IMG/VR virus record: IMGVR_UViG_3300036833_000180
Location: 1-43,003 of that record
DNA length: 43,003 bases
Source of the DNA: a virus
Taxonomy: Duplodnaviria; Caudoviricetes
Strand: one strand, 5' to 3'
Below are positions 9,016 to 43,003 of the stretch, piece after piece; position 1 is the stretch's first letter, and every line of letters begins with the position of its first letter. The position numbers and the translations under genes were made by a program. The notes under the pieces were generated by a model. That model had not been told where the DNA came from, did not search any database, and worked only from the letters and a program-made list of their open reading frames with translations.

Positions 9016-9142
9016 GATCGCGCAGCGTCCGAGAGACGTTCAAGCGGGGACCCTCCTAATGTATCACATTAACAGTGATACGTTAGCTACGTGTCTAGCA
9101 CGGCACGCATTCCATGTCAAGTGAAAAAGTTGGACGGACTAT
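9016..9142 (+). repeat. 127-bp inverted repeat, copy 1
   Basis: Exact reverse complement of 42877-43003. Confidence 0.95.
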
Positions 9143-9165
9143 AGCTCTTTTGTAAAAAATAAACT

Positions 9166-9194
9166 CTTGACAGCCGTAGCGACCCCCCTATATC
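9166..9194 (+). promoter_or_regulatory. Sigma70-like promoter
   Basis: CTTGACA...CTATAT just upstream of ATG 9201, preceded by an A-rich UP-like tract. Confidence 0.5.
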
Positions 9195-9200
9195 GCCGTC

Positions 9201-9455
9201 ATGTCCAAGTGGGTCACATACCTGGCGGCGACGGCGTGGTGGTCGGTGATGCGGGCCGGCAACGAAAGCCTGGTCATCCTGTTCGTCATGATGCTGCTGC
9301 CGCTGTACATCATCAACTTCGACAGGAGACACCCCGATGAACATTTACCCCTTCGACCAAGTCGCCGCGCGGGTGGAAGAAATATTAAATGGCACATCTA
9401 CCGACGAACACTTCGTCGCCCTCAGAGCGCTTGCCGGCGGTGCGCCGAGGATTGA
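9201..9455 (+). CDS. Hypothetical membrane protein
   Basis: Hydrophobic N-terminal half, possibly leaderless after the promoter; the 3' part overlaps the next gene. Confidence 0.35.
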   Translation: MSKWVTYLAATAWWSVMRAGNESLVILFVMMLLPLYIINFDRRHPDEHLPLRPSRRAGGRNIKWHIYRRTLRRPQSACRRCAED

Positions 9456-9621
9456 GATATTTCAGCAGTTCGTCTGCGCCCACTGCCTGACCAAGCAGAC
9501 CATGCCGGACCCCAACGTGCTTTACACCCACGGCAAGTGCGAGGAGTGCCAGCACGTCACTGACATCAAAAAGAACGGCTGCAATTACGCCGTCCAGTAC
9601 TACGGGCACACGCCGGGATGA
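9337..9621 (+). CDS. Zinc-finger protein
   Basis: AGGAG RBS; CAHC and CEEC motifs. Confidence 0.7.
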   Translation: MNIYPFDQVAARVEEILNGTSTDEHFVALRALAGGAPRIEIFQQFVCAHCLTKQTMPDPNVLYTHGKCEECQHVTDIKKNGCNYAVQYYGHTPG

Positions 9622-9755
9622 CCGAGCAGCTGCTGACCTATTCGTGCATCGCCGTGATCATGTGGCTCGACGCCAGCGATGTGGTGGAGCTGATCGGTGG
9701 CGTGCTGGGCGCCTGGGCATTGATGACCGCTATCCTATGGCTGGTTCCTCAATAA
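9618..9755 (+). CDS. Small membrane protein (45 aa, not in the ORF track)
   Basis: MTEQLLTYSCIAVIMWLDASDVVELIGGVLGAWALMTAILWLVPQ; ATGA overlap with the upstream gene. Confidence 0.55.
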   Translation: MTEQLLTYSCIAVIMWLDASDVVELIGGVLGAWALMTAILWLVPQ

Positions 9756-10755
9756 AGCGCCAGCTAACTTGGCCCATACCGGACAAGCCGATGATGCTGG
9801 CGGCGGCGGGTGTGATATCGATGCCGGCGCCGTTCGGCTTCTTACCCTGGTTGGGGCCGCGCGGCAGCGTCATGTTATTCTCGGCGCAGGTCTCGGCCAG
9901 CGGCCGGCGGTTGTTCTCCCAATAAGGATCGTCGGTCAGCCACGGTCCCAGATCGCGGATTTTGCAAACCACTTCGCTGCCGTTGGCGAGGTTGCGGACC
10001 ACCACTTGCGGCCGCCAGTCCTCCGAGAACTTGAAGGGCAGCGCCACACTGGTTTCGTTATCGGTGATGACATCGTAAGGCGGATAGGCCGAGTTGTTTG
10101 GATCGGAGCCGCCGCCGAACACGCTGCATTTGATATCGGTGCAGTAGGGCGAGAACGCCACGATTTCGTCCGGTGGCGGCTCGACTGGAGGCTCAGTGGG
10201 CGGCTCGACCGGCGCTTCGTCGATGGTCTGGCCGCTGATGGCTGAAGCGATGGCGGCGCAGATGCCGGCAAACTCGGCGCGATAGAGCGCGGCGTCAGCT
10301 TGGCTATCAACAAAGCAGGTCTCAATCAAAATCGCCGGTTCTTCGGTGCCGTTAAGGAACGCCAGATCGGTGCGTTTCTTCGGACCACGGTTAATGAAAT
10401 CGCCAGCATCGCTGATTTTGCGGGAGACCGTATCGGCCAATGATTGCTGAGTGACATACAGGCATTCCGTCCCCATCGGCTTCGGTGTCACCTGATAGGC
10501 GTTGAAATGGATCGAGACATCCAAATCGCGGGTGCAGCCATTGTGAAAATTCACGATCCGATTGAGGTTCTCACTTTGTGTCGTCGACACGTCATCATGG
10601 AAGGTGATGACGCTGACGCCGACCAGCGAACGCAGATAGCCAGCGGTTTCCTCGACCACGCGGCGGGCCTCATTGACTTCGTCGAGACCCCAGGGCGGTG
10701 GTCCGGCAGCACCCCTGACGTATTTGCTGTGGCCCGAGCTGATGACGATCTGCAT
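9730..10755 (-). CDS. Endolysin: N-acetylmuramoyl-L-alanine amidase (Amidase_3) with a C-terminal DPBB/RlpA-like domain
   Basis: ISSGH, E, VSIHFNA and AILIETCFVDS amidase motifs; Pro/Glu linker; IRDLGPW and GIDITPAAA in the C-terminus; GGAGG RBS. Confidence 0.88.
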   Translation of the reverse strand: MQIVISSGHSKYVRGAAGPPPWGLDEVNEARRVVEETAGYLRSLVGVSVITFHDDVSTTQSENLNRIVNFHNGCTRDLDVSIHFNAYQVTPKPMGTECLYVTQQSLADTVSRKISDAGDFINRGPKKRTDLAFLNGTEEPAILIETCFVDSQADAALYRAEFAGICAAIASAISGQTIDEAPVEPPTEPPVEPPPDEIVAFSPYCTDIKCSVFGGGSDPNNSAYPPYDVITDNETSVALPFKFSEDWRPQVVVRNLANGSEVVCKIRDLGPWLTDDPYWENNRRPLAETCAENNMTLPRGPNQGKKPNGAGIDITPAAASIIGLSGMGQVSWRFIEEPAIG

Positions 10756-10877
10756 GACTGTGTTCCTCCATATCGAGACGCGACGCGCCCATTTCGGAGC
10801 GCGCCAGTTCTTGCTCTGCATCGATTACCTGCTTTACAAGCGGTAGGCGAGGTTGGCTGTAGCACGGAGCCGTGACC

Positions 10878-11027
10878 ATGCCACTACGGGGCAGCGTGAG
10901 TGATCGAATTAGCGAACTGACCCACCACGGCTCCAAGCCGCGCAGTCACCGCCAGATCGTCGCCATAGCGCTTAACAGCGCTCGCAAAGATCGGTCTAAG
11001 CGAAGCAAGCGGCGAGCGCGGCGCTAG
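10878..11027 (+). CDS. Small basic protein (49 aa, not in the ORF track)
   Basis: MPLRGSVSDRISELTHHGSKPRSHRQIVAIALNSARKDRSKRSKRRARR; GGAG RBS; resembles common small phage proteins with a Q.VAIAL..AR motif. Confidence 0.65.
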   Translation: MPLRGSVSDRISELTHHGSKPRSHRQIVAIALNSARKDRSKRSKRRARR

Positions 11028-11182
11028 TGGAACAGCTTGAGCGTGCGGCGCATGTCGGCATAGATGCGCGCTACCACCTCTTCGCGTTTATCCGGCGGCA
11101 GCTGCGGGCATTGCTTGCGGACATAGATGCGCGTCGCCGCCAGCAGCTCCTGTTCCCATTGCTGCAGCTCCCTAGACGACAT
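11024..11182 (-). CDS. Hypothetical protein (52 aa, not in the ORF track)
   Basis: MSSRELQQWEQELLAATRIYVRKQCPQLPPDKREEVVARIYADMRRTLKLFH; overlaps the HTH gene stop. Confidence 0.55.
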   Translation of the reverse strand: MSSRELQQWEQELLAATRIYVRKQCPQLPPDKREEVVARIYADMRRTLKLFH

Positions 11183-11474
11183 GGCCGCGGATTTCGTCGG
11201 CGGTGAATTCGGTCATGCTGGCCAGCCGCTTGGCCTGCTTTTTGTTGGGCCGGGTGGTGCCGTTGAGCCAGTAATAATAGGTTTGCCGCGACACCCCGAG
11301 CGCCTTGGCCTTGACCGCCACCGGATCGCCGGGCCGGATTTGATCGAGCACCGCCGCCATCGGCACTGCGGTCAACAGCCGTTGCACCTTCATGGCCGCC
11401 CTGGACACGGCGTCGTCCGGGCTCGACTTGACCAGACGCTTGGCCAGCCGCAGCGCCTCACTGGTATTCGTCAT
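11172..11474 (-). CDS. XRE/Cro-type helix-turn-helix regulator
   Basis: AKALGVSRQTYYYWLNGTTRP HTH motif; divergent from the + strand operon. Confidence 0.8.
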   Translation of the reverse strand: MTNTSEALRLAKRLVKSSPDDAVSRAAMKVQRLLTAVPMAAVLDQIRPGDPVAVKAKALGVSRQTYYYWLNGTTRPNKKQAKRLASMTEFTADEIRGHVV

Positions 11475-11488
11475 GTCCAATCCTGCCT

Positions 11489-11538
11489 CTTGACAATCAT
11501 GGGCCAAAACATATTACTGGACAGAGTGACCGTCAATG
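11489..11538. promoter_or_regulatory. Overlapping opposed sigma70-like promoters
   Basis: On +, TTGACA-N17-ATTACT; on -, TTGACG-N17-TATGTT; located between the HTH and HNH genes. Confidence 0.45.
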
Positions 11539-11552
11539 TGGAGAGACGTAAG

Positions 11553-11852
11553 ATGGCACCTATAATCCACGGGCATTCCGTGGGCTACCCTCCGACTGGC
11601 GTCTATGTGTCCTGGCTGAGTATGCGAGGTCGCTGCGAAAACCCATACAACAAAGACTTCAAATACTACGGCGGCAGAGGAATTAAAGTCTGCGGACGCT
11701 GGAGCAAGTTTCTTAATTTTTTAGCTGACATGGGTGAGCGACCACCCGGTCATACGCTCGAACGTATCGACAACAACAGTGACTACAAACCATCGAACTG
11801 TAAATGGGCAACGCGGCGCGATCAGCGGCGTAATCGGAGAGATTGGCCATGA
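11553..11852 (+). CDS. HNH-type homing endonuclease-like protein
   Basis: W.SM..RC.NP....[21 protein letters not shown]...TLERIDN...Y.P.NC.WAT signature; start at ATG 11553. Confidence 0.85.
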   Translation: MAPIIHGHSVGYPPTGVYVSWLSMRGRCENPYNKDFKYYGGRGIKVCGRWSKFLNFLADMGERPPGHTLERIDNNSDYKPSNCKWATRRDQRRNRRDWP

Positions 11853-12061
11853 TTAGCCAGTTCAGCGTCGGCACCAGCCGAACCATCAACCTGGGCAATT
11901 TCGAGAGCCTGCGGGTCGAGGCGTCGGTCACGATCGACTGCCCCGAGGATGGCGATTGGGTGCAGCTGCGGGCCGCGGCGCAAATCCAGCTACGCGAACT
12001 GCTGGAGGACACCTACCGGGCGCAGCATGAGGACCGCAGGAAGAAGCAGATCAGCGCATGA
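11849..12061 (+). CDS. Hypothetical protein
   Basis: RTINLGNFESLRVEA motif typical of small phage proteins; ATGA overlaps. Confidence 0.7.
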   Translation: MISQFSVGTSRTINLGNFESLRVEASVTIDCPEDGDWVQLRAAAQIQLRELLEDTYRAQHEDRRKKQISA

Positions 12062-12432
12062 ACCGGCTCAAGGAAATCAACGATGAGGTTTACGCCCGCT
12101 GGAAGGCCGGCGAAAACCATCTGGACTTGGCCGATGAATATGGCCGCTACGGTCTTGAGACACTGTTGCGGCGGCGGCTCTATGCCGAACAGCACGCCAA
12201 CGATCCGCGCGGTGAAAGCAACCAGGAAGCCCGCGCCCGAACCTGGCAGCGTAACGAGGATATCATTCTCAGCCGCGCCGCCGGCTCAACCTACAGCGCA
12301 TTGGCGCAAAAGTACGGCATCAGCCGCGAGCGGGTGCGGCAAATCTGGATGAAGCACTTGCGTAAGTCTCGCGATCCGCGTGGGCTCTATGGGCCGCGCC
12401 TCGCTGCTAAAATCAAACTGCGAAGAAACTAG
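12058..12432 (+). CDS. Sigma70 region-4-like HTH protein
   Basis: TYSALAQKYGISRERVRQI motif. Confidence 0.7.
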   Translation: MNRLKEINDEVYARWKAGENHLDLADEYGRYGLETLLRRRLYAEQHANDPRGESNQEARARTWQRNEDIILSRAAGSTYSALAQKYGISRERVRQIWMKHLRKSRDPRGLYGPRLAAKIKLRRN

Positions 12433-12434
12433 CC

Positions 12435-12746
12435 ATGAGCAAGCTGCCGGAACAGGTTAAGGCATTGCGCTGGGTACTGCAGAAGATCAGGCCCCACGCC
12501 GAATATGGCAATCAGCAGTGGGAGGACTGGAAAAAGTCGGCCTACCAAGAACCGGATCGGAGCAAATCCGAGGCGTATTGGGAAGGCTATCTCGACGCCC
12601 TTCGCAGCGTATGCGAGGACATCAATAAAAAACTTGAAGCGCAAGCGCGGGCGATGCTTACCCGTGATGAAGTGCTCGATCTGATGTTCGGAAAATTAGA
12701 CAAAACCAAGGAACCGATCAACCATGACAGCGAACATGACCAGTGA
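12435..12746 (+). CDS. Hypothetical protein
   Basis: ORF in a tightly packed operon. Confidence 0.6.
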   Translation: MSKLPEQVKALRWVLQKIRPHAEYGNQQWEDWKKSAYQEPDRSKSEAYWEGYLDALRSVCEDINKKLEAQARAMLTRDEVLDLMFGKLDKTKEPINHDSEHDQ

Positions 12747-13395
12747 CAATCTGCCGATGATAGCCGACGAAGTCCGCAACATCGGCGACGAAGCCGACCG
12801 CGATGCGGGGTTTCAGAAAATGCTCAAGTTCAAGAAAGGCGTCTATAGCTGCGACGGCGAGGAGATCGACCTAGGCACCAAGCTTATTGCTCACGCCATC
12901 GGCTGGGCCAAATGCTGGATCCATTTCGTCGACCAGAAGGTGGTCGAGCGCAAAATCTATCGGGTCTCCAAAGGCGAGCGGGCGCCGGAGCGCGACCAAA
13001 TCCCCGACAACGACGAGAGCCAATGGCCGATCGGCATCAACAAGCAGCCGGCCGATCCCTGGGTCTATCAGTACCTGCTGCCGATGGAAGACCAGCGATC
13101 GAACGAGGTGCGGATTTTCGTCGCCTCGTCGTTCGGTGGCCGCCGCGCGGTGGCCGACCTGTGCTCGGCCTACGCCCGTCGCGCTCAGAAAAAGCCCGGC
13201 ACCGGGCAACCGATCATCACCCTGCAGATGGTGATGATGCCGACCAAGAACTTCGGCGACGTGCCACGGCCGCACTTTGAGATTGTCGGCTGGGATGACG
13301 AGGCGCAGACCCCGACCCGCACGGTGTCGGAGGAGGTGCTAAAGAAGCAGGAATTCGACGACGAAATTCCTTTTAACTACGGCAACGAGAACTAG
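12724..13395 (+). CDS. Putative single-stranded DNA-binding protein
   Basis: LKFKKG.Y, DPW.YQY.LP and P.F.IVGW motifs with an acidic EFDDEIPF tail, as in phage SSB-like proteins. Confidence 0.65.
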   Translation: MTANMTSDNLPMIADEVRNIGDEADRDAGFQKMLKFKKGVYSCDGEEIDLGTKLIAHAIGWAKCWIHFVDQKVVERKIYRVSKGERAPERDQIPDNDESQWPIGINKQPADPWVYQYLLPMEDQRSNEVRIFVASSFGGRRAVADLCSAYARRAQKKPGTGQPIITLQMVMMPTKNFGDVPRPHFEIVGWDDEAQTPTRTVSEEVLKKQEFDDEIPFNYGNEN

Positions 13396-13405
13396 AGAGG
13401 CCGTC

Positions 13406-13828
13406 GTGGCTTTTTCGTTGCCAGAAGAATGGCGTGAAGTGCCAAGTGTTCCTGGCCTTCTTGCAAGCAGTGAGGGGTGCATTATGACCGCCCCTCATAC
13501 CAAACCTATGCCGCGAGGTGGGGAACGTACCTACGGTGGGAAGCCGTGGCTTGGCGCTTGGAGCAAAGAAGATAGCCGATACACCACCAGATTTCGCGGC
13601 AAGACTTATAGGGTTGCCCGATTGGTTTGTGAGGCATTTCACGGACCGCCGCCGTTTGTTGATGCAGTTGTCATGCACCTTAACGAAGATGGGTCCAACA
13701 ATTGGCCCGATAATCTTAGATGGGGGACGCAAAAGGAAAATCTGAACATGCCGTATTTTCTCGACTACTGCCGCAGCCGCACTGGCGAAAACAGTCCATC
13801 TGTAAAAGGCCGAAGGAGCAAGCCATGA
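13406..13828 (+). CDS. NUMOD4-HNH endonuclease
   Basis: EEWREVP...ASSEG N-terminus; VARLVCEAFHGPPP...VMHLNEDGSNNWPDNLRWGTQKEN. Confidence 0.85.
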   Translation: MAFSLPEEWREVPSVPGLLASSEGCIMTAPHTKPMPRGGERTYGGKPWLGAWSKEDSRYTTRFRGKTYRVARLVCEAFHGPPPFVDAVVMHLNEDGSNNWPDNLRWGTQKENLNMPYFLDYCRSRTGENSPSVKGRRSKP

Positions 13829-14118
13829 GCCTGCACAACAGCACGTTCCTGTATCTGAAGCCGACCGACAAGCAAATGGGCACGATGGATTTCGTCCGCG
13901 AAGCCTACGACAATTTCGCCAAAGTGCTGCAACAAAATTTGCCCGACGGCGCCGACAAGACCCACGTGCTGCGGCTCATTCGCACCGCGGCAATGTGGTC
14001 GCATGTTGCCATCACCCGCAATCAAGACGGCAGCCCGCGGGATGACATGACGCCGCCGAAACCGTTCGATCCGGGCGCGGATGCCGGCGCCTTCGCCTCG
14101 ATGGATGGCAAGCGGTGA
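13825..14118 (+). CDS. Acb2/Tad1-like helical-hairpin protein (possible nucleotide-signal sponge)
   Basis: F.YLKPTD.Q...M..VR....LPDGADKT.VLR..RTAAMW..VAITR pattern; AAGGAG RBS before ATG 13825. Confidence 0.5.
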   Translation: MSLHNSTFLYLKPTDKQMGTMDFVREAYDNFAKVLQQNLPDGADKTHVLRLIRTAAMWSHVAITRNQDGSPRDDMTPPKPFDPGADAGAFASMDGKR

Positions 14119-14122
14119 GCGA

Positions 14123-14305
14123 ATGGTCTATCTCCCGACTTGGGATTTGATTGAGGAACGTGAAGGGGTATGGGGCGGGGCAACGGCTCGCTTGGAAATT
14201 CCTGGCGGCTGGCTTTATCGCGTGATTGAAAATCGCGGCACCGACCAACCCGTCATGGCTGTGGTGTTTGTGCCGATACCGGAAAGGCGACCGGAGGACG
14301 AATGA
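14123..14305 (+). CDS. Hypothetical protein
   Basis: TARLEIPGGWLYR...VFVP motif typical of small phage proteins. Confidence 0.6.
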   Translation: MVYLPTWDLIEEREGVWGGATARLEIPGGWLYRVIENRGTDQPVMAVVFVPIPERRPEDE

Positions 14306-14478
14306 TCTTCCGTATCTACCATCAACAACAAGGCGGCCATGTTCATATGCGGGTGTTTGCCGGCACCCACGACGGTGCGCTTGGCAAGTGCGGCGATCTG
14401 ACCATGCGCGAGCCGGAGTTTGCCGTGTTTAAGCGTTGGCTTTATCCACGAGTGCAGTTTGTTGAGGAAGGAAAGTGA
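14302..14478 (+). CDS. Hypothetical protein (58 aa, not in the ORF track)
   Basis: MIFRIYHQQQGGHVHMRVFAG...GDLTMREPEF; GGAGG RBS and ATGA overlap. Confidence 0.65.
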   Translation: MIFRIYHQQQGGHVHMRVFAGTHDGALGKCGDLTMREPEFAVFKRWLYPRVQFVEEGK

Positions 14479-14479
14479 A

Positions 14480-14731
14480 ATGAACGAGGATAGCAACGAC
14501 CGCCTGAAAAAGTTCGAGAGTGCACTGTCCGATCCGATCGCCAAGTTCATACCAAAATCCAGTCAGCCAAAGGCGGAGCCGACGGTGGCGGTGACCATCG
14601 CCGCGATCCGGGATCAAGCCCACACTATTCTCAAGATGTGCGAAGAGGCCGAGACTGCCATCAATGCCAGCGAGGACAGCGCCCGCAAGGCGGCCGACAG
14701 CCTGATGGACCTGATTAAGCGCGTTAAGTAG
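14480..14731 (+). CDS. Hypothetical coiled-coil protein
   Basis: ATG directly follows the upstream stop; helical pattern. Confidence 0.6.
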   Translation: MNEDSNDRLKKFESALSDPIAKFIPKSSQPKAEPTVAVTIAAIRDQAHTILKMCEEAETAINASEDSARKAADSLMDLIKRVK

Positions 14732-14732
14732 A

Positions 14733-14969
14733 ATGGTTGGACAAGTGCCGACCGCGGCGAAGATCAAGGAGCTGCAACGCGAGTTGGCGGTGCGCCGCAA
14801 TTTTTATCCGCGGATCATCGCCAGCGGCAAGCTCGACAAGGCCGAGGCCGCCTACCGGCTTGAAGTGCTGGAGGCGATCCTGGCCGACTATAAACTGAAA
14901 CTGAAGCAAGAGCCCCTGCCGCTGTCGCGCGATCAGTACATCAAACAAAGCAATGGAGATTTCGATTGA
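14733..14969 (+). CDS. Hypothetical protein
   Basis: RELAVRRNFYPR.IA.GKL...A...LEVLEAILADY, a conserved-looking small phage protein. Confidence 0.7.
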   Translation: MVGQVPTAAKIKELQRELAVRRNFYPRIIASGKLDKAEAAYRLEVLEAILADYKLKLKQEPLPLSRDQYIKQSNGDFD

Positions 14970-15241
14970 GCGACATTCCGAGAGCACGTGAGCTGTTGCA
15001 AGAAATCGAGAGCATGACCGACTTATCGCAAATCAAGCGACAGGTGCGGCGGGCTATTGGCTTGATGACACGCGAGCGGGCAGTGCGCCGCGCGCCCAGC
15101 CGGCCAACGATCATCACTCTGGCGACGCGGAAGTATATTCGCAAGCTGGCCGGCACCGACCACACCCTGCACGAAATTGCCAATCTCACCGGCATCTATA
15201 ACATCGGCCGCATCAGCGAGGTGCTCAATGGACATCGGTAA
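14966..15241 (+). CDS. Putative HTH DNA-binding protein
   Basis: TLHEIANLTGIYNIGRISEVLNG; GGAG RBS. Confidence 0.65.
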   Translation: MSDIPRARELLQEIESMTDLSQIKRQVRRAIGLMTRERAVRRAPSRPTIITLATRKYIRKLAGTDHTLHEIANLTGIYNIGRISEVLNGHR

Positions 15242-15247
15242 CAACAA

Positions 15248-15973
15248 ATGAAAGTCCATCCAGTTGAACAGCGCACGCCGCAATGGTTCGATCTGCGCAA
15301 GGGCATCCCCTGCACCTCGGGCTTTGCCAACATCATCACGCCCAAAGGCGCGCCAACCGTCGGCGAGCGGCGGCGAAAATATATGTGCCGGCTGATTGCC
15401 GAGCGGCTGCTCGACACCGCCATGGGCGACAAGTTCGAGACCGAATGGACCTTGCGCGGCAAGGAATTGGAGCCGCAGGCTGCGGTCGCATTCGCTGCCG
15501 AGTTCAACTGCGAACTCGACGACGGCGCTTTTATCACCAACGGCGTCGAGACCGAGATCGACGAGATTGCCTGCTACAGCGGCGACGACAGCGTTGGCGC
15601 TTCACCCGATCGCATCTTGCGCGGTGTCATCGGCCGGCAAGGACTGGAGATCAAATGCCCGGCGCCGTGGACCCAGGTCGACTATCTGCTGCATGGTCCA
15701 GGCGCCGATTACAAACCGCAGGTCCAGGGCCAGCTCCTGGTCGGCGAATTCGAGGTGATGCACTTTTGGACGTTCCATCCGCAGATGCCGGCCTGTCATC
15801 TGATCACCACCCGCGACGAAGCCTATTTATCGCGGCTGGCGCGCGAGCTGTTCCAGTTCTGCGACGAGCTGAATGCCGAAACCGAGCGGGCGCGGCGGCT
15901 GGGCATCTTCGTCCCCGGCCACAGCTCGCTTTCGCCGGATGACATACCGGGGACATTTCCCTGGCTACAATAG
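15248..15973 (+). CDS. YqaJ / lambda-exonuclease family nuclease
   Basis: QRTPQWFDLRKG.P.TS, RGKELEP.A, GASPD, LEIKCP and Y.PQVQGQL motifs. Confidence 0.9.
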   Translation: MKVHPVEQRTPQWFDLRKGIPCTSGFANIITPKGAPTVGERRRKYMCRLIAERLLDTAMGDKFETEWTLRGKELEPQAAVAFAAEFNCELDDGAFITNGVETEIDEIACYSGDDSVGASPDRILRGVIGRQGLEIKCPAPWTQVDYLLHGPGADYKPQVQGQLLVGEFEVMHFWTFHPQMPACHLITTRDEAYLSRLARELFQFCDELNAETERARRLGIFVPGHSSLSPDDIPGTFPWLQ

Positions 15974-16017
15974 GGCCGGCTGGGGCGCGAGGGGATTGCG
16001 CCTATGGGAGAAACAAA

Positions 16018-17373: not shown

Positions 17374-17379
17374 CGGAGG

Positions 17380-17887: not shown

Positions 17888-17906
17888 AGGACTTTGATCC
17901 GTATCT

Positions 17907-29895: not shown

Positions 29896-29898
29896 GGT

Positions 29899-33562: not shown

Positions 33563-33564
33563 GA

Positions 33565-34110: not shown

Positions 34111-34115
34111 GGTGG

Positions 34116-34455: not shown

Positions 34456-34458
34456 GTA

Positions 34459-34947
34459 TCATGATCCTGGCAATGGCGTCGAGGGCATCGGCGGCTGTGC
34501 ACCACCACCGCCCGCACCAGCACCCGGACCAGGGGCCGCGCCACCGCCTTGCTGTGATTGCTGGCCCATGATGTTTTGCAAAATGAAGTTCTTGGCGAGG
34601 CTGCCCAGCATGTCCATCAGTTGGGTACGCTGCAAGCCGGCGGACGGCGCGCCCTGCGAGACGTGCTTGCTTAAGCGCTGCGTGGCTTTGAGCACGTCCT
34701 GTTGAATGGGAGTACCGGGCTGCAATCCGGGCAGCGCCTTCGACAGCAAGCCGATCGCGTGCTGCACCAGCGATATTGACGAAGCATTATCGCCCGGACC
34801 GGGCGCACTGACTTGCGGACCGCGCTGCCGGTTGGCCAGTGAAGCGAGGATCGGACCACCGCCTTGCGGCGGACCCGGCGGCCGAGCGGCGGCCGGCGGC
34901 GGGCCTTCGTTCTGATCGGGAGCTGCGGCGCTGTCGAGGAATGACAT
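34459..34947 (-). CDS. Pro/Gly/Gln-rich head-module protein
   Basis: GAGGT RBS; lies between portal and scaffold. Confidence 0.7.
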   Translation of the reverse strand: MSFLDSAAAPDQNEGPPPAAARPPGPPQGGGPILASLANRQRGPQVSAPGPGDNASSISLVQHAIGLLSKALPGLQPGTPIQQDVLKATQRLSKHVSQGAPSAGLQRTQLMDMLGSLAKNFILQNIMGQQSQQGGGAAPGPGAGAGGGGAQPPMPSTPLPGS

Positions 34948-34977
34948 TGCGTTACCTCGTGACGCAAAGCTACAACA

Positions 34978-36702: not shown

Positions 36703-36920
36703 CAGCGCCAATCCTTGTCGGTCGCGCGCCATTCGACTTCGCGATGAACGGCGTTCAATTGACTGACGACATCTTCGCTTTTGTACTTGAGCCTGTCCAC
36801 CCAATGCCACAACGCGGCTTCGTAGGCGATCAGCTCGGGAATTGTCATCTTGGAAATGCGCTCCTGCAGGCCAGACAGCCGCGACCGGCCGTTGTGCCGC
36901 AGAATGATTGGCATCACCAC
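36702..36920 (-). CDS. Hypothetical protein
   Basis: Translationally coupled to the portal gene. Confidence 0.6.
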   Translation of the reverse strand: MVMPIILRHNGRSRLSGLQERISKMTIPELIAYEAALWHWVDRLKYKSEDVVSQLNAVHREVEWRATDKDWR

Positions 36921-37399
36921 ACGCGCATGGCTCGACGTTTTGAATTTTCAATCAAATCCGGTTGGGTACCGTCCTTCAACATTTTTTGCAGCGTATCGAC
37001 GCCGCTATAGCCACCGTTCGCCATGCGGGTTTGCCGGCCCAGCGCCATGGCCTCAGACAGGACATTGCCGGGTGCGCCCCACGAACTCACCTGGGCTTGC
37101 TGCATGGCGTTGCCCTGGTCCTTGTATCTTACTTTCGGGGTACCGCCGTGTCGGGTGTCGTGCTGCATGTCGGCGACGCCGTAATCTTCGGCAGCGATAG
37201 TTTCGGCCAGCTTGACGGCTCTGCCGACGATTGAGCCGCCGATGGCGATGGGCTTGAACTCTTGCGCCATTTGCTTTGATAGCGACGTTTCCGCGCAACG
37301 TGGGCAAAGTGGTGGCTCCTCATCGACCTGCTCCATCGTTAAGGTGACATCCATGAAGTGGCCGCAGTCACCACAGCCGAAAGTGCGGACAATTGGCAT
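36914..37399 (-). CDS. FmdB-like zinc-ribbon protein
   Basis: MPI..TF.C..CGH...CPRC N-terminus, a common gene type between terminase and portal. Confidence 0.75.
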   Translation of the reverse strand: MPIVRTFGCGDCGHFMDVTLTMEQVDEEPPLCPRCAETSLSKQMAQEFKPIAIGGSIVGRAVKLAETIAAEDYGVADMQHDTRHGGTPKVRYKDQGNAMQQAQVSSWGAPGNVLSEAMALGRQTRMANGGYSGVDTLQKMLKDGTQPDLIENSKRRAMRVW

Positions 37400-37403
37400 G
37401 ACA

Positions 37404-37493
37404 TCACCCGTGCACAGCGTGAATGGCTAATCCCAAGAACAATACCGCGACGACGACAATCATCAACCACCCCGGCGGCGTAGGGATGTTCAT
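37404..37493 (-). CDS. 29-aa membrane peptide (not in the ORF track)
   Basis: MNIPTPPGWLMIVVVAVLFLGLAIHAVHG; ATG abuts the terminase stop. Confidence 0.5.
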   Translation of the reverse strand: MNIPTPPGWLMIVVVAVLFLGLAIHAVHG

Positions 37494-39290
37494 TCAAAAC
37501 CTGTCCTTATGCTCACGCGACTTGCGATTGATCATTGCCATGTGCTGGCTGAATGCGAATGACAGCACCGTGCCGACGTTCTGCGGCGGCCGGTCGCCCT
37601 TCACACTATCCCACGTGAGATTGCGAGCCACCAGCATAGGCCGACGCCACTCAATCCAAGCATGATGGGCCAGAACGAGTGCAGAAACCAGATCATCGTT
37701 CTCTCCGGTATCAGGTCCGGCACCGATCCAGCCGTCGTCTTCAACGATGCTTTGCATTTGCGCTATTAGTTTCGGCGAGCGCACTTCCAACCGCCGCAGC
37801 ATCAGACTGTCTCGCAGCTCCGAATAGACCTGATGCTTATTGTCAGAATTTGCCTTCCATGCAATTACGTTTCCGGCTCCACCTAATGTGTCGGGTCTTT
37901 TGTACAGGAACCAACGCACTGCTCCAATCATATTCAGGATGTTTTCTGTTCCCGGCTCCCCTTGCAGAATGCCGCGTTCCGCTAATTGACGGAGGTTTCT
38001 CACTTCAGGCAAAACAGCCGCACCCACCCCCGTCACTTCCAGATTGGCTATGTGATCCTTGTACGCGCCCGCTAGGTGCGCCAGCACCCACGCTAATTGA
38101 TAGGTCAACGGCTTATTCGACTGAAACTCCGCGATCTGAACCACCTTATCAGCATAGCAACGCAGCACTTGGATGGCGTGGTCATCACTTTCGCCGCCAC
38201 CGCCACCGGATGGATCAACACCAATGACGTAATGACCGGTGGGTTCGGGCGGCTCCCAGACTTTGAGCATGGCGTCATCGGGCTTGCTCACTTGTTCAAT
38301 GCGGCTGGCCAAGAATTTGTCGTCGAAAATGTATCTGTAGCCTTTGTAGGGTGGCCCGACCGGCGACAGCTGCTCGGAGATTTCCAGGGTCCGCGCCGCC
38401 GGGAAAAAGCCGGAACCGGAGGCGATGAAGCATTCGCGCTCATGCCAAGGAAAATGTCTTAACATATATTCTTCGGCTTTGAATTCGGCTTCGCGTCGCC
38501 ACCACGCGATCTGTTCCGGCCTGATGATGACTTTGTAATTGTCCTTGACGTATCTGGCGCGGTTAATCTCCTCAACCGTCAACCGGCCGTCCCAATAGGT
38601 CTTGTAGTCGGGATCGTCTTTGGCAATGGCGTAGGTCGGGTTGGCCCAGAAGCCGATAAAAATAAATCGCATATGCCTGTCAAGTTTTGCCTGTTGACAG
38701 TGGTTGTAGTACCAGTTGAAGCCGGAGGCGATGCTTTCCCAGATGTAAAGCCGATGCGGGTTTTGTCGCGCCAGCGACGCCTTCAAGCTCTCGACACCGG
38801 CCAAGGACTTCCATTGCGCGCATTCGGTCGCGTGCATCATGTTCAATGCCCGCGACGCGCCCAGGTCCGGATTAGACGCCGCAGCCATAAGGTCAATGAC
38901 GCTGCGGTTGGCGAACGCCATGCCGGAGCGGTTATTCTGAATGAGTTGATGTTCGGGGGATCGCCACTCAGGCGGTAACGTCTCCAATAGACTTCCGAAA
39001 ATTCTGCGCAGACGTTCCAAATTGTCGGTACGGTCGGCAATGATGGCTCCCTGAACGCCGGGGTTGGCGAGTGCCCAGAATAATTCTATTACACTACAGA
39101 CTGTGGTGATGGCGACCTGGCGGCACTTCAAGACGACAAATTCATGAACCCCTTCGTTGAGCCCGCGCGCCACCGCGTCAATGACAATGCGCTGTGACGG
39201 CCACGGCTCAATGCGGCAGCGGCCTTCTTCCTTAGTGTCAATGGAGACACTGGTTAGAAGATCATAAATTCCCTGTCTGATCGTTGGAAT
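37494..39290 (-). CDS. terL: Terminase large subunit (5' end extended to a probable ATT start)
   Basis: VVLKCRQVAITT Walker A variant, MHATECAQW Walker B, WESIASG, YVIGVDPSGG and NDDLVSAL nuclease motifs; the frame is open 39 codons upstream of GTG 39173. Confidence 0.88.
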   Translation of the reverse strand: MPTIRQGIYDLLTSVSIDTKEEGRCRIEPWPSQRIVIDAVARGLNEGVHEFVVLKCRQVAITTVCSVIELFWALANPGVQGAIIADRTDNLERLRRIFGSLLETLPPEWRSPEHQLIQNNRSGMAFANRSVIDLMAAASNPDLGASRALNMMHATECAQWKSLAGVESLKASLARQNPHRLYIWESIASGFNWYYNHCQQAKLDRHMRFIFIGFWANPTYAIAKDDPDYKTYWDGRLTVEEINRARYVKDNYKVIIRPEQIAWWRREAEFKAEEYMLRHFPWHERECFIASGSGFFPAARTLEISEQLSPVGPPYKGYRYIFDDKFLASRIEQVSKPDDAMLKVWEPPEPTGHYVIGVDPSGGGGGESDDHAIQVLRCYADKVVQIAEFQSNKPLTYQLAWVLAHLAGAYKDHIANLEVTGVGAAVLPEVRNLRQLAERGILQGEPGTENILNMIGAVRWFLYKRPDTLGGAGNVIAWKANSDNKHQVYSELRDSLMLRRLEVRSPKLIAQMQSIVEDDGWIGAGPDTGENDDLVSALVLAHHAWIEWRRPMLVARNLTWDSVKGDRPPQNVGTVLSFAFSQHMAMINRKSREHKDRF

Positions 39291-39492
39291 AGGTCACCCC
39301 ATGATGGACTCCGGGCCGGGGAAAGATACCGTACCCGTCACCGTCGCGTCTATGCCAGCGGCCGCTTAGGTAAATGCGAGAGGGCGGGTCGGTACTGCGG
39401 ACGGGCGGTGGGGATGATGGCGGCTTGAGACTGTCCAGCGTTTGATTGAGGCGCTCAAGTTCCCTGACGATGGCGTCGAACTGCTGGTCCAT
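39262..39492 (-). CDS. Hypothetical protein upstream of the terminase
   Basis: GAGGG RBS; N-terminal coiled coil; overlaps the extended terminase 5' end. Confidence 0.5.
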   Translation of the reverse strand: MDQQFDAIVRELERLNQTLDSLKPPSSPPPVRSTDPPSRIYLSGRWHRRDGDGYGIFPRPGVHHGVTYSNDQTGNL

Positions 39493-39528
39493 TTGCGGGT
39501 TCCCTCTGCTATGTTATATACTGCCCGT

Positions 39529-39606
39529 GTCTCCTATCCAGTAGGGTACTTGGGTCTTGAGCCGCCGGGCGCGAAGTTGCTCTCCTCGCCCGGCGGTTCT
39601 TTTTTT
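39529..39606 (+). ncRNA. Candidate small RNA with an anti-RBS loop (UUGCUCUCCU)
   Basis: Upstream TTGCGG-N18-TATACT; 13-bp stem 39559-39571/39587-39599 followed by T7; the loop is complementary to AGGAGAGCAA. Confidence 0.5.
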
Positions 39607-39614
39607 GAGTTGGC

Positions 39615-39830
39615 TTACCTCGGCGATGCTTGATCATGTTCCCGTATCAGCTCATCCATTGCCTCGAATATTGCTTTACCTAGCTTGTGGAAATCCTCCA
39701 GGGCTTGCTGTTCATCGCCTTCAGTGATTTCCGTCAGTGCAAACCACAACATGTCTGCGAGCATAGCGGCCGGTAGATCGAACTCGGGCCAAAGCCGCTG
39801 AGGAAGAAAGACTGGCTTGATCGGCTCCAT
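39615..39830 (-). CDS. Hypothetical protein
   Basis: GGAGAGCAAAAATG start. Confidence 0.65.
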   Translation of the reverse strand: MEPIKPVFLPQRLWPEFDLPAAMLADMLWFALTEITEGDEQQALEDFHKLGKAIFEAMDELIREHDQASPR

Positions 39831-39966
39831 TTTTGCTCTCCATGATCTTGCCTTACTTTAGTCTAAAATTTTTTTTTGACTTTTTTTATTTATTTGGTCA
39901 CTTTTTGTTCCGTCGGGGGTATGGGGGATGGCGGGCCGCGCGGCAATCGCGGCCCGCTGTTGTTAA

Positions 39967-40188
39967 TCACGCCAGCTTCCACTTCAGTTCCGCGACACCG
40001 GTCGGGGTGACTTCGTATCGCGGCTCTGATCGCCAGCCACGGGCCAGCGAGTAAAGTTGCATCGTTCGCATATCGTAGGTCGGGTGACCGCTGCTGTCCT
40101 GATACTTCTTGGCATCCTCATAGCAGTTGAACGGGCCGATCGCACACGGTTCGCTATCGAAGACGACGATCCACTTTTCTTTGCTCAT
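39967..40188 (-). CDS. Hypothetical early protein
   Basis: GGGGAG RBS; ATGA overlap. Confidence 0.6.
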   Translation of the reverse strand: MSKEKWIVVFDSEPCAIGPFNCYEDAKKYQDSSGHPTYDMRTMQLYSLARGWRSEPRYEVTPTGVAELKWKLA

Positions 40189-40361
40189 CGCAACTCCCCT
40201 GATTTGCTGAAGGTATCCTTGACGAGTTTGATTGCCGCCATTTGCCTGCGGTACTCGCCGGGATTGTCGAAGCGGTCGATGGTGTTCTGGAACGCCAGCT
40301 CGATCACCACATCGAGCGCGGCGTCAATGTCGTCGTTTTTGGTCGGCTTGATCTTGAGCAT
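40185..40361 (-). CDS. Hypothetical early protein (58 aa, not in the ORF track)
   Basis: MLKIKPTKNDDIDAALDVVIELAFQNTIDRFDNPGEYRRQMAAIKLVKDTFSKSGELR; AAGGT RBS. Confidence 0.6.
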   Translation of the reverse strand: MLKIKPTKNDDIDAALDVVIELAFQNTIDRFDNPGEYRRQMAAIKLVKDTFSKSGELR

Positions 40362-40494
40362 TGGGGTTACCTTTCAGTTTCTCCATTGTTTTGTTGTAGC
40401 AATAGTCGCAGAGCGGCTGATTGCTCAACGTGTAAACTGCCATTTCATACTCGGGATATTCGCCACGGCACTTTGTGCAGCGGATCATTGGCAT
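40324..40494 (-). CDS. Small zinc-finger early protein
   Basis: GGAGAGCACAATG start; CTKC and CDYC. Confidence 0.6.
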   Translation of the reverse strand: MPMIRCTKCRGEYPEYEMAVYTLSNQPLCDYCYNKTMEKLKGNPNAQDQADQKRRH

Positions 40495-40612
40495 TGTGCT
40501 CTCCACGATTTTGGTTTAGTCCGTGGGTCGGCATTCTTGAACCGGACAAGCGGCTACCTGAGACCGGCAGAATGCCTTTCGGCTCGGACGCCCACGGTCG
40601 CCCGATAAGTAA

Positions 40613-40641
40613 AGTTTAATTCTTGGACATGAGGGCGTCAA
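40613..40641 (-). promoter_or_regulatory. Sigma70-like promoter
   Basis: TTGACG-N17-TAAACT on the - strand. Confidence 0.6.
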
Positions 40642-40665
40642 GAGGAAACTCGCGACGCCCTTTTT
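40632..40665 (+). terminator. Hairpin plus T-run (possibly bidirectional terminator) overlapping the -35 box
   Basis: AGGGCGTC...GACGCCCT followed by TTTT. Confidence 0.45.
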
Positions 40666-40671
40666 GTTTGG

Positions 40672-40866
40672 TTAAAGCTTGCTGGCGACACTCTTGAGGA
40701 TGCGATCAAGTTCCTCGGTCGTTGCGACAATGGCGACATAGTCATCCTCGTCGAAATGCTGTCGGAACTTATCCAAGTCGCCCTTGAGGAATTTGGTGTC
40801 CTTGCGCAGCTCGCCCAGGGCGTCGATCGCCGCAATTTTCTCGTCCAACTCATCATCATCGTCCAT
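40672..40866 (-). CDS. Acidic hypothetical early protein
   Basis: GAGGAGAGCAGACAATG start (MDDDDELDEK...). Confidence 0.65.
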   Translation of the reverse strand: MDDDDELDEKIAAIDALGELRKDTKFLKGDLDKFRQHFDEDDYVAIVATTEELDRILKSVASKL

Positions 40867-40894
40867 TGTCTGCTCTCCTCGTTGTCGCGTTTCA

Positions 40895-40943
40895 TGAACG
40901 CGGCAAAACGGCGGGATCGCTCCCGCCGCTTCGCTCTCGTTCA
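40895..40943 (-). repeat. Intergenic hairpin repeat type A, copy 1
   Basis: TGAACG-AGA-GCGAAGCGG...CCGTTTTGC-CG-CGTTCA on the - strand. Confidence 0.85.
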
Positions 40944-41087
40944 ACGTCCGCTGTCACAGTGTTGAATACAGCCCTCACCGGCTCGGCACTCTGTCCAGCA
41001 ACATTTGGTGCCGTTGCCGCATGCGTGCGCCGTGTGAATGTTTGCCGCCATGACGGCAAGCACGATCAATCTGATTGCTATTCTCAT
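40941..41087 (-). CDS. Small secreted Cys-rich peptide (48 aa)
   Basis: GGAGAGCAACTATG start; signal peptide followed by 6 Cys. Confidence 0.6.
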   Translation of the reverse strand: MRIAIRLIVLAVMAANIHTAHACGNGTKCCWTECRAGEGCIQHCDSGR

Positions 41088-41197
41088 AGTTGCTCTCCAT
41101 CGCGTTCGAAGTGGATTGACGCCACAGCCGGAACGCAATCGTGCTGTGGGAAAAGACGGCTGATGACGTGGTTGTTGGCTCGCCGTTTCGTTCTCGT

Positions 41198-41407
41198 TCA
41201 TTCCACTTCGCCATCGACTTCGATCAATTCAGAAGTTTCACCGCTTTCGTCTTCGATTGATGCTTCTGTCAGTTTGACGCCGTCATTGTCATAGCTAACG
41301 TCGATGCAATCGAGGACATCAAGCATTTTCTTGCGCGCCGTAGCTTCATTTGACGCTGTTACGCGGCAAACAGCCCATAACTTTACGTCGAAAGCGTACT
41401 CTTTCAT
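41198..41407 (-). CDS. Hypothetical early protein
   Basis: GAGGAGAGCAAACAAATG start; KEYAFDVKL.A..RV.A..E..AR. Confidence 0.7.
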   Translation of the reverse strand: MKEYAFDVKLWAVCRVTASNEATARKKMLDVLDCIDVSYDNDGVKLTEASIEDESGETSELIEVDGEVE

Positions 41408-41431
41408 TTGTTTGCTCTCCTCTAATCTCGT

Positions 41432-41668
41432 TCACAACGGCATTGCTGGATTGCCGTCATGGTCCGTTATTTCAACGGATGGCGGCAAACTAATGAACAT
41501 TGGCGTAACTGTGTACTGTTCCGCGTTGTGAGTGATTGCTACGATGGCAACGACCGGATCGCCGTTGGCGAAACAGGAAAACAACGCAAAGTTTTTGTAT
41601 TCGCCGCTCGTCAACAACGCTTCGAATGTTTTCTTATGCTCGGGCGTGATATTTGTTTGTTCGCTCAT
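41432..41668 (-). CDS. Hypothetical early protein
   Basis: GAGGAGAGCAAACCAAAATG start; NFALFSCFANG.P.VAIVA...TPMF. Confidence 0.7.
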   Translation of the reverse strand: MSEQTNITPEHKKTFEALLTSGEYKNFALFSCFANGDPVVAIVAITHNAEQYTVTPMFISLPPSVEITDHDGNPAMPL

Positions 41669-41701
41669 TTTGGTTTGCTCTCCTCTTGTTCGCGTCATCA
41701 A

Positions 41702-41751
41702 TGAACGCGGCAAAACGGGGCGCAACGCGCGTCCCGTTTCGCTCTCATTCA
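41702..41751 (-). repeat. Intergenic hairpin repeat type A, copy 2
   Basis: Near-identical to 42157-42206. Confidence 0.85.
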
Positions 41752-41832
41752 TGGAGCGATTTCGGTTTTGTTGCTCGGATCAAATGCCGCGACAACAAAA
41801 TCAGCTTGCCGCCAATTGCCCTCGTTTGTTTG
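41749..41832 (-). pseudogene. Start-less 3' gene remnant ending in the hairpin TGA
   Basis: Frame QTNEGNWRQADFVVAAFDPSNKTEIAP* has no start codon or RBS. Confidence 0.35.
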
Positions 41833-42141
41833 TTAACTAAAGTAAGTTCCGCAAACTACGCGCTCGAAACTGTCAACGTAGCGGAACACAACGCCGCTAA
41901 AGTAACTGTCGCTGACAATGCCATGCCACTTGCAGAATTTTGGTTCGTGTCGCGCGTAGTCGTCAATCCGCTCAACGTCACTCAAGTCGTAAACCCAAGC
42001 GCGATAGCGAACGAATGAGCGTTCCATTTGCTTGTCTTCCGTGTCCAGATAGTCAAACTCCGCGCGCTCCTTGTCGGTCAACTCATACCAGCGCAAAAGA
42101 TTGCGCGGCACGTTGTTTGTTTTGATCGTAAGCTCACCCAT
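41833..42141 (-). CDS. Hypothetical early protein
   Basis: GAGGAGAGCAAAATG start; IKTNNVPR...EFDYLD...WHG..SDSYFSG. Confidence 0.75.
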   Translation of the reverse strand: MGELTIKTNNVPRNLLRWYELTDKERAEFDYLDTEDKQMERSFVRYRAWVYDLSDVERIDDYARHEPKFCKWHGIVSDSYFSGVVFRYVDSFERVVCGTYFS

Positions 42142-42156
42142 TTTGCTCTCCTCTCA

Positions 42157-42206
42157 TGAACGCGGCAAAACGGAGCGCAACGCGCGCCCCGTTTCGCTCT
42201 CGTTCA
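42157..42206 (-). repeat. Intergenic hairpin repeat type A, copy 3
   Basis: TGAACGAGAGCGAAACGGGGCGCGCGTTGCGCTCCGTTTTGCCGCGTTCA on the - strand. Confidence 0.85.
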
Positions 42207-42328
42207 CTTCTTGAGTTCGGCCATTTTCGACGCGAGCGTGAACAAAGCTTTGTTCAATTTCACGTCCTGGCTCGCGCCGAACCATCGAAACGAGCGGTTG
42301 AAGCGTACACGGTGTTTTGCATGTTCAT
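42204..42328 (-). pseudogene. Internally deleted DUF932/DUF945-like gene
   Basis: Strong RBS and MNMQNTVYASTARFDGSARA are joined out of frame to QDVKLNKALFTLASKMAELKK*, which resembles the C-terminal motif of that family. Confidence 0.55.
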
Positions 42329-42381
42329 TTGATTGCTCTCCTCAGTAACAGACGCGCGGTGCGCGCGTCCGGCATTGAGGA
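42324..42381 (-). repeat. 58-bp direct repeat type B (RBS-sequestering hairpin), copy 1
   Basis: Near-identical to 42605-42662; TCCTCA pairs with TGAGGA. Confidence 0.9.
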
Positions 42382-42411
42382 GATACGGGGCGCATGTTGC
42401 GCCCCGTGCGT

Positions 42412-42609
42412 TCATCGCAGCGATCCCTCGGTAACGAGTGAACGGATCAAGGTTTCGCATCCATCGATCATATGCTCGGCACTCGGGTTGCCGTTGCGCA
42501 TATCGTGTTCGTTGTAGCAAGGCCAGCAGGCGACTAAGCCGAATGGTTTGTTGCAACCACACAACGGACATTCGAGTGAACGGCGGACGTAAGGATGATC
42601 AATATTCAT
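42412..42609 (-). CDS. Small zinc-finger early protein
   Basis: CPLC and CWPC motifs; GAGGAGAGCAATCAAATG start. Confidence 0.7.
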   Translation of the reverse strand: MNIDHPYVRRSLECPLCGCNKPFGLVACWPCYNEHDMRNGNPSAEHMIDGCETLIRSLVTEGSLR

Positions 42610-42662
42610 TTGATTGCTCTCCTCAGTAACAGACGCACGCTACGCGCGTCCGACATTGAGGA
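42605..42662 (-). repeat. 58-bp direct repeat type B, copy 2
   Basis: See 42324-42381. Confidence 0.9.
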
Positions 42663-42803
42663 GGAGAAGCTTCGCCCGGATTGCGTGAGTTACGGTGGGA
42701 GGTTGTTTATCGTTGACCCTGCGGCCACGGTTACCGGGCGACACGACAGGCCGGAGCACCGCGCGTACCTGCTAGCGCCTACGTTTCCGCTCTAGCAATT
42801 CCA

Positions 42804-42831
42804 ACTCTATCAGAGCTGGAGTTGCTGTCAA
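42804..42831 (-). promoter_or_regulatory. Sigma70-like early promoter overlapped by an inverted repeat
   Basis: TTGACA-N16-TAGAGT on -; AGCAACTCCAGCTCT-GAT-AGAGTTGGAATTGCT dyad. Confidence 0.5.
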
Positions 42832-42876
42832 AGGAAATAGTTGGACGAGCTATCCATTCTGCGCATGGCAGCCATG

Positions 42877-43003
42877 ATAGTCCGTCCAACTTTTTCACTT
42901 GACATGGAATGCGTGCCGTGCTAGACACGTAGCTAACGTATCACTGTTAATGTGATACATTAGGAGGGTCCCCGCTTGAACGTCTCTCGGACGCTGCGCG
43001 ATC
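42877..43003 (-). repeat. 127-bp inverted repeat, copy 2 (runs to the contig end)
   Basis: Exact reverse complement of 9016-9142. Confidence 0.95.

Follow-up and report, generated by a model that had tools for sequence, protein, structure and literature searches.

What is the physical genome behind a viral contig whose right end folds back onto its own interior? The contig in question, IMG/VR virus record IMGVR_UViG_3300036833_000180, was analysed over its whole length of 43,003 nt (the window) and is classed by IMG/VR as linear and 86% complete. Its genes, annotated by PHROG (67 open reading frames, ORFs) and Pfam (30 ORFs), code for a large terminase, portal, capsid, fibres, an amidase lysin, a primase/helicase, a YqaJ exonuclease and a VRR-NUC nuclease. 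Terminase, portal, major capsid protein and tail fibres are those of a tailed phage, and no tape-measure or sheath gene was matched in the window; the absence of long-tail matches, together with weak matches to an SU10-type portal and to a Gp77-like adaptor, suggests a member of the Caudoviricetes of the short-tailed type. The element at issue is a short repeat, a (9016-9142), whose inverted copy, a' (42877-43003), forms the right end of the record. It separates segment A (64-9015), with the fibre and primase/helicase genes, from the much longer segment B (9143-42876), with the lysin, recombination, virion and terminase genes; we refer to the left end of the record as the A-distal end.

In a search for exact repeats of at least 14 bp, a and a' are exact reverse complements over 127 bp and their identity stops sharply at the inner edge (9142/42877), as the original prediction had described, and the palindrome that it reported at the left end is likewise perfect over positions 1-126. 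After this pair and the palindrome, the next-longest inverted match in the window measures 18 bp, which excludes a chance origin of the 127-bp repeat. The suspicion that the figure of 127 was set by the assembler's k is likely correct, as the length of the terminal copy varies by assembly, with 3, 77 and 100 bp in three assemblies of one strain and 123 and 148 bp in those of another. Repeat lengths that correspond to no k value were considered as proof of a physical end, but this argument was dropped, since a junction lost between k steps yields the same lengths. A second hairpin at 43003, the centre of a 10-bp palindrome (9011-9020), was dropped as well, because contig ends vary by assembly and unitigs break at 9019/9020, not at 9011. 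One could go further and regard repeat and palindrome as library or assembly artefacts, such as fold-back chimeras or products of amplification, given that 127 and 126 equal k and k-1 and that the left fold-back has a depth of just 3. This we consider very improbable, as 20 of 51 relatives have an inverted copy at the homologous junction, where their sequence is otherwise divergent, and as an independent assembly with k=31 recovers the junction at two thirds of the depth of the genome.

The proportions of the different joints can be judged from sequencing run X1, the sole run found to contain the phage (98% of sampled words) and probably its source sample. Both a-to-B junctions are present in its Logan contigs, at depths of 11.8 on the lysin side (9143) and 12.7 on the terminase side (42876); the contig spanning the latter has a loose end at 9142 that matches the window inward from 42876. 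The depths of A (22.6, 18.8, 19.0 and 15.9) and B (19.2, 17.1, 15.1 and 18.7) come from four single contigs each, among the 8 pieces listed out of 238, and those at the junction from all 6 pieces. Weighted by length, A has a depth of 19.1 and B of 17.4, a ratio of 1.09, while repeat a stands at 18.1, next to 15.9 in the adjoining part of A and 19.2 in the interior of B. The structure preferred in the original prediction, a 52-kb A-B-A' molecule with hairpin ends whose 9-kb inverted terminal repeats had been collapsed by the assembler, does not survive this comparison: terminal arms at twice the depth of the core, as in poxvirus-type genomes, would bring A and a to about 35, and neither is doubled, junction-side A lying at 15.9-19. 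It can therefore be rejected as the main molecule. As a packaged form it is permitted by the topology of the graph and would account for the equal junction depths and for a nearly doubled summed depth in distal A, but a symmetric molecule would not yield the orientation bias seen among relatives, and we regard it as quite improbable.

The depths instead agree with the alternative raised alongside it, an inversion of B relative to A. Both orientations are found in one population, with junctions of similar depth (11.8 and 12.7) around a single-copy A, and both are found among relatives. If the coverage tapers equally at both ends, the two isomers stand at about 45:55, the window's own making up 44-47% of molecules; its maximum would be 62-74%, unless noise is larger. 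Moreover, the depth is 24.5 going into a from B and 15.9 going out into A, implying that many molecules stop in or near a, and from this loss across the repeat a' is likely to lie at a physical end of the genome. The unitig breaks at 9019 and 9020 adjoin in the X1 assembly, with no branch reported, and may reflect molecules with ragged termini, 7-8 bp ahead of the conserved box described below, which we take as a lead only. Those same breaks, for which we have no explanation, could be a third path into a, as would be expected of a circular or circularly permuted genome with an ordinary internal invertible segment and an unassembled link from a' to the A-distal end; the two nearest phages in GenBank, MW202753 and MW202825, are recorded as circular. 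Yet there is no loose end outside a in X1, depth across a falls rather than doubles, none of 68 records is classed as having direct terminal repeats, and no long record was seen to run past a' into anything other than A, short ones such as G049 being only partly checkable. A circular genome is thus, in our estimation, slightly less probable even than a packaged A-B-A' molecule.

How general is this layout? Relatives were found via terminase, capsid and portal scans, and 51 of them, mostly the longest, were fetched whole. The family comprises more than 50 records, and 523 of 7999 scored candidates qualify as terminase homologues at E≤0.001; short-word scans of viral contigs with primase and adaptor genes returned no relatives, and none was found in bacterial or archaeal genome contigs or in plasmids. 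Among the first 42 records there is one same-strain pair, and in six pairs over 5% of the 21-mers are shared. MW202753 and MW202825 are distant, with identities of 37% in the terminase, 35% in the capsid and 30-31% in the portal protein. A terminal inverted copy of the primase-side junction is carried by 20 of the 51 relatives, of which 17 have the window's layout (20-126 bp), one the opposite layout (G010, 67 bp), and two comprise nothing but B, bounded on either side by the repeat (G014, 123 bp; G033, 127 bp); among records of at least 36 kb, it is present in 18 of 25 and absent from the other 7. This recurrence, which had been named beforehand as a check, excludes a one-off chimera, and the view that the boundary is biological proved right. 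Within any one genome the terminal and internal stretches agree base for base, although a diverges widely between genomes outside the conserved boxes, so that one copy must often be templated from the other; the exception is G030, with 79 exact bases followed by a looser match. Two of the 68 records examined for terminal repeats are classed as having inverted ones, and a few of the 68 may lie outside the family.

Orientation and length are informative as well. In 28 relatives A adjoins B on the lysin/exonuclease side, in five (G010, G025, G048, G049 and G056) on the terminase side, and as short records reveal only the second form, selection does not account for this bias. Family records from the IMG/VR scans reach at most 43,695 bp. 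A further test, independent of the depths though weaker, agrees with them: B shortens as A lengthens, with a slope of -0.85 (95% confidence interval -1.40 to -0.29, n=17), which fits a constant A+B (mean 41.7 kb) and not a constant 2A+B (p=5e-4 against -2), so that A+B looks like the constrained unit; for the A-B-A' molecule, both this slope and the lack of any IMG/VR family record above 43.7 kb are difficult to accommodate. The bias could also mean that virions contain the window's orientation only, the second junction arising from intracellular A-a-B-a'-A' intermediates or from rare recombinants, and dead ends, which are mostly on the terminase side, would be in line with this, while a slope near -1 fits equally. 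The lysin-side junction in X1, however, stands at 11.8 where about 17.5 would be expected, a shortfall of 26-35% that is within possible local noise, and A is not raised above B in depth, as such intermediates would cause it to be. We therefore consider a single packaged orientation unlikely.

Taken together, the presence of both junctions, the near-equal depths of A, B and the repeat in X1 and the recurrence within the family point to two isomers of a linear A-a-B-a' molecule of about 43 kb. We put at roughly 60% the probability that the window represents the near-complete linear genome (about 43 kb) of an uncultured soil phage of the short-tailed type, with the order end-A-a-B-a'-end and with A adjoining one end of B or the other. 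The architecture as such, a single-copy A and a short repeat with both orientations, we hold with good confidence.

Several observations weigh against this reading. The depths in X1 are contig means from a single run in the k=31 Logan assembly, not raw reads, and by the tool's own account do not represent copy number. Two sets of bins in X1, 601-5400 (28-42) and 16201-18000 (30-35), are near twice the baseline; they cover the fibre genes and an Ig-domain gene (16018-17373) with 4 differing letters, the single contig 2003-3236 being at 22.6, and it is likely, if not proved, that they stem from a co-occurring relative that shares host-recognition modules. The near-equal junctions in X1 fit poorly with the 28:5 bias among assemblies, which a modest majority isomer favoured by assemblers might reconcile. 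The length slope is biased toward zero by incomplete ends, and its reduced major axis estimate is -1.3. CheckV rates most records of 40-44 kb as 74-86% complete, implying some 50-56 kb, sizes that would suit an A-B-A' molecule or a circular genome, whereas it gives 98-100% for G005, G008, G042 and G055. Three ENA contigs with 86-88% identical terminases, P0022 (47.0 kb), P0006 (49.6 kb) and P0031 (56.4 kb), exceed every IMG/VR family record in length and again would suit A-B-A'. At the left palindrome, the fold-back joint has a depth of 3.03 in X1, and folding is strong at only 3 of 25 A-distal ends, the window's included. One of the two promoters claimed at the ends of B fails the scan, and the conserved site discussed next is absent from G044 and MW202825 by hidden Markov model (HMM) search.

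Repeat a overlaps a conserved site of about 70 bp (8975-9041), which consists of a T-tract, GG.AAA, a GCATGGGG-like box, a variable spacer of about 18 nt and a GTCC..GAGACGTT box (9027-9040). An HMM built from an alignment of 22 sites has one match in each of 11 held-out relatives, none in 43 reversed decoys and none in records without A. The primase gene adjacent to the site differs between genomes in both its length and its family (AAA_25 in the window but D5-type in G044), and the distant MW202753, which has only head and tail proteins in common, keeps the site about 0.9 kb upstream of terL (E=8e-4). That the site stays while the primase changes, and that it sits near terL in MW202753, argues for a terminase recognition site over an origin, and we predict that it is likely the recognition and cut site for packaging. 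The inner boundary of a, by contrast with the site, is not fixed: it lies 86-554 bp from the motif in 14 records and about 1.7 kb from it in G030, and falls within gene starts in G010 (8353-8419 in that record) and at both ends in G014. A boundary that drifts and cuts gene starts is incompatible with a site-specific crossover point, and the combination of a site-specific invertase and fixed crossover sites that characterizes the Mu/P1 type was not found. As a side observation, two different genes in G010 and G014 share promoter region, ribosome site and first codons.

The original prediction had also placed inward-facing sigma70-like promoters at both ends of B. The one on the terminase side stands (42831-42804, minus strand, 10/12 match), although with 0.3 expected in shuffles it is weak when taken alone; the one on the lysin side does not, as the scan of 8700-9500 returned 0, even though TTGACA-N16-TATATC is visible at 9167-9194. 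The latter sequence we take to resemble the rhizobial promoter consensus, and together with a GC content of 60% and the soil source, an alphaproteobacterial host would fit. A PEP-CTERM motif in a protein of a relative, G035 (L216:10298-11065), may hint at the host group. An imperfect inverted repeat (42826-42904) spans the terminase-side boundary, such that the final ~29 bp of a recur in B in degenerate form, and boxes resembling TGTCAAG...TTGG.CGG, possibly operator sites, are found at the boundary in G001, G002, G009 and G016.

Which enzymes could invert B? No integrase, invertase or protelomerase was matched among the 67 window ORFs searched with PHROG, the 30 searched with Pfam or 120 family representatives, out of about 200 candidates, searched with Pfam; the universal unannotated ORFs outside the virion module are all shorter than 250 aa. 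A partition gene was not matched either, nor was a protelomerase/telRL system found, and no replicative DNA polymerase was identified. The YqaJ exonuclease is present in 36 of 43 records. ERF (25 genomes) and the family of the window ORF at 12724-13395 (10 genomes) never co-occur and jointly cover 35 of the 36 exonuclease-bearing genomes, so the latter family, to which the protein atlas gave no name, is likely to be a new candidate single-strand annealing protein that substitutes for ERF. VRR-NUC and another family, with 18 records each, are mutually exclusive. An exonuclease and an annealing protein family in nearly every member make a recombination-based route available, and judging by this gene content, homologous recombination likely drives the inversion.

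The A-distal end, finally, is likely a true end of the molecule. The window's palindrome has counterparts in G007 (98 bp) and G028 (20-bp arms with a 9-nt loop), whereas the other 22 of 25 A-distal ends show no fold-back, many of them lying 4-8 kb beyond the gene for the fibre adaptor, where the DNA is AT-rich. The palindrome probably represents either a hairpin end or the point at which the halves of a replication dimer meet head to head; a covalent hairpin is possible, and taken by itself the palindrome could be an artefact. AACC-N2/3-GGTT, tried as a motif of this end, proved not to be general (3 of 25 within about 110 bp).

The features of the window are collected in Table 1. Related primase/helicase ORFs are found in 25 of 43 records, and the label 'holin-like' in segment A is a tentative one for small hydrophobic ORFs. 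A candidate small terminase (18139-18573) received no name from the protein atlas. The ORF at 13720-14118 has a weak match to an Acb2/Tad1 hairpin domain (E=9e-5, below cut-off), and stronger Acb2/Tad1 and Tad2-like matches in relatives mark candidate anti-defence genes. The early region (40866-42800) consists of small ORFs with repeated units in between, among them a direct repeat of 18-20 bp (40892, 41701 and 42154) and a further repeat of 32 bp (42324/42605); these units may be recombination-shuffled expression cassettes.

Table 1. Positions of the features discussed, numbered along the 43,003-nt window
Feature	Positions	Strand	Basis or remark
Perfect palindrome, A-distal end	1..126		centre 63/64; exact-repeat search
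Segment A: holin-like genes, tail fibres, fibre adaptor, primase/helicase	64..9015		PHROG and Pfam
Tail-fibre and holin-like module, transcribed toward A-distal end	261..5819	-	
Tail fibre	2240-4561	-	PHROG/Pfam
Gp77-like fibre adaptor	5349-5819	-	Gp77 E=3e-4, below Pfam cut-off
Primase/helicase (AAA_25), directed at junction	6270..8243	+	PHROG, Pfam
Conserved non-coding site, predicted terminase recognition/cut site	8975..9041	+	alignment and HMM
Internal copy of repeat a, minimum length	9016..9142	+	outer limit about 9016-9020
Segment B, 33,734 bp: lysin, recombination, virion, terminase, early genes	9143..42876		
Putative single-strand annealing/binding protein	12724..13395	+	occupies ERF slot of relatives
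YqaJ-type recombination exonuclease	15248..15973	+	PF09588, E=3e-13
VRR-NUC nuclease, likely Holliday-junction resolvase	26778..27236	-	PF08774; PHROG resolvase match
Head module: capsid, scaffold-like ORF, portal, Zn-ribbon ORF, terminase	32498..39173	-	PHROG/Pfam
Major capsid protein	32498-33634	-	
Portal	34978-36951	-	homology to MW202753; SU10-type portal match in a relative
Large terminase	37494-39173	-	
sigma70-like promoter, into B from terminase-side end	42804..42831	-	10/12 match
Terminal inverted copy a', with right-hand box of conserved site (42992-42979)	42877..43003	-	

How might such a genome be maintained? In the scenario that we propose, the terminase would cut in or near the conserved site and thereby make the a' end. 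Having no direct terminal repeat, this free end would in each cycle invade the internal inverted copy, with the help of the phage exonuclease, annealing protein and resolvase, and its extension would restore the full site and keep the two copies identical. If the intermediate were resolved as a crossover, B would be inverted; if synthesis continued, a transient A-a-B-a'-A' would form, in which either a site could be cut. Both routes would produce two isomers without an invertase, and the 52-kb A-B-A' molecule may at most be a replication intermediate. The A-distal end would be a hairpin or would be cut from a head-to-head dimer. As a complete mechanism, this scenario is tentative, and we would not give it even odds.

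Comparison with known systems places these features in context. N15-like linear plasmid prophages with a protelomerase have hairpin ends that appear palindromic, and the window resembles them in the fold-back end of its assembly; it differs in having one palindromic end, no match to a protelomerase or partition gene, no cos-joined circle and no match to plasmids or bacterial contigs. Herpesvirus genomes of class D exist as two isomers. In herpes simplex virus (HSV) 2, an a-sequence with packaging motifs is found at the ends and inverted inside the genome, giving four isomers (PMC8954253). Like HSV, the phage has a packaging-signal region, here a predicted one, that is both terminal and inverted at an internal junction, isomers, and packaging by terminase and portal; HSV has a at both ends along with kilobase flanking repeats, whereas here a is at one end only and the isomers are two, and we claim no homology.

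Among phages, the Burkholderia jumbo phage Matilda (Sarumanvirus) has a linear genome of 267 kb in which two terminal segments, of 1.3 and 25 kb, are invertible; its repeats measure 1.5 and 18 kb, the core with the terminase and capsid genes is fixed, a flip-flop by homologous recombination has been proposed, and assemblies break at the repeats (bioRxiv 10.64898/2026.10.21.760668). The likeness consists in inverted repeats that flank a terminal segment, one of them at the end of the molecule, which for our phage is itself inferred, and in the occurrence of both orientations. The differences are a size of 43 kb, a single invertible segment that accounts for about 80% of the genome and includes the genes for terminase and capsid, a repeat of about 130 bp to a few hundred bp that lies over a conserved site, and a hairpin-like second end; in place of two pairs of kilobase-long repeats there is one pair, of at most 148 bp at contig ends. 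The Anabaena cyanophages A-1(L), A-Lf14, A-Alj1 and A-Hlh1 have a region of ~30 kb between inverted repeats of 400-700 nt that exists as two isomers, the repeats being flanked on both sides and the genomes, according to the authors, circularly permuted and headful-packaged (bioRxiv 10.64898/2026.02.14.705889). As in these, the position of the repeat is kept while its sequence diverges, and no recombinase has been established; unlike in these, one copy is likely located at a physical end and direct terminal repeats are found in no record, so that two internal repeats in a permuted, redundant genome are not what we see (0 of 68, and no long record past a' except into A). The Mu G- and P1 C-segments, as summarized in both preprints, are internal cassettes of ~3 kb in which a site-specific invertase switches tail fibres (bioRxiv 10.64898/2026.10.21.760668, 10.64898/2026.02.14.705889). 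They share with our phage an inversion between inverted repeats in a tailed phage; our phage departs from them in the lack of an invertase match, the drifting boundary and the position of the fibre genes outside the inverted part. MW202753 and MW202825, from Manatee Spring, have related terminase, capsid, portal, adaptor and tail proteins, but are 34-36 kb long, recorded as circular and without a long inverted repeat. The layout thus works like the Matilda, cyanophage and HSV systems but belongs to none of them.

Tailed phages are known to solve the problem of their ends by cos sites, by pac sites and headful packaging, by direct terminal repeats, by terminal proteins or by host ends. No description of this phage family or of its exact layout was found in the open literature, a scope that leaves aside subscription journals and the supplements of both preprints. 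The most far-reaching interpretation of our analysis, which we regard as possible though doubtful, is that of a widespread soil podophage family with an undescribed end strategy, an internal inverted terminal redundancy that would dispense with a cos circle, a direct repeat and a terminal protein: one end would be a hairpin, and the other would be cut by the terminase and in every cycle restored with the internal mirror site as template, via a palindromic A-a-B-a'-A' or rolling-hairpin-like intermediate, flipping 80% of the genome as herpesviruses do. Large, recombination-driven phage isomers, which in the literature found are represented by just two preprints of 2026, are extended here to a large uncultured soil family, and in it the repeat is linked both with one end of the genome and with a conserved site of predicted packaging function, much like the a-sequence of herpesviruses, which also package through a terminase and a portal. 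For the family itself, this means that genomes filed as linear fragments of some 75-85% completeness are probably near whole, and that there is now a precise site at which to ask how genome ends are copied in a phage that lacks direct repeats.

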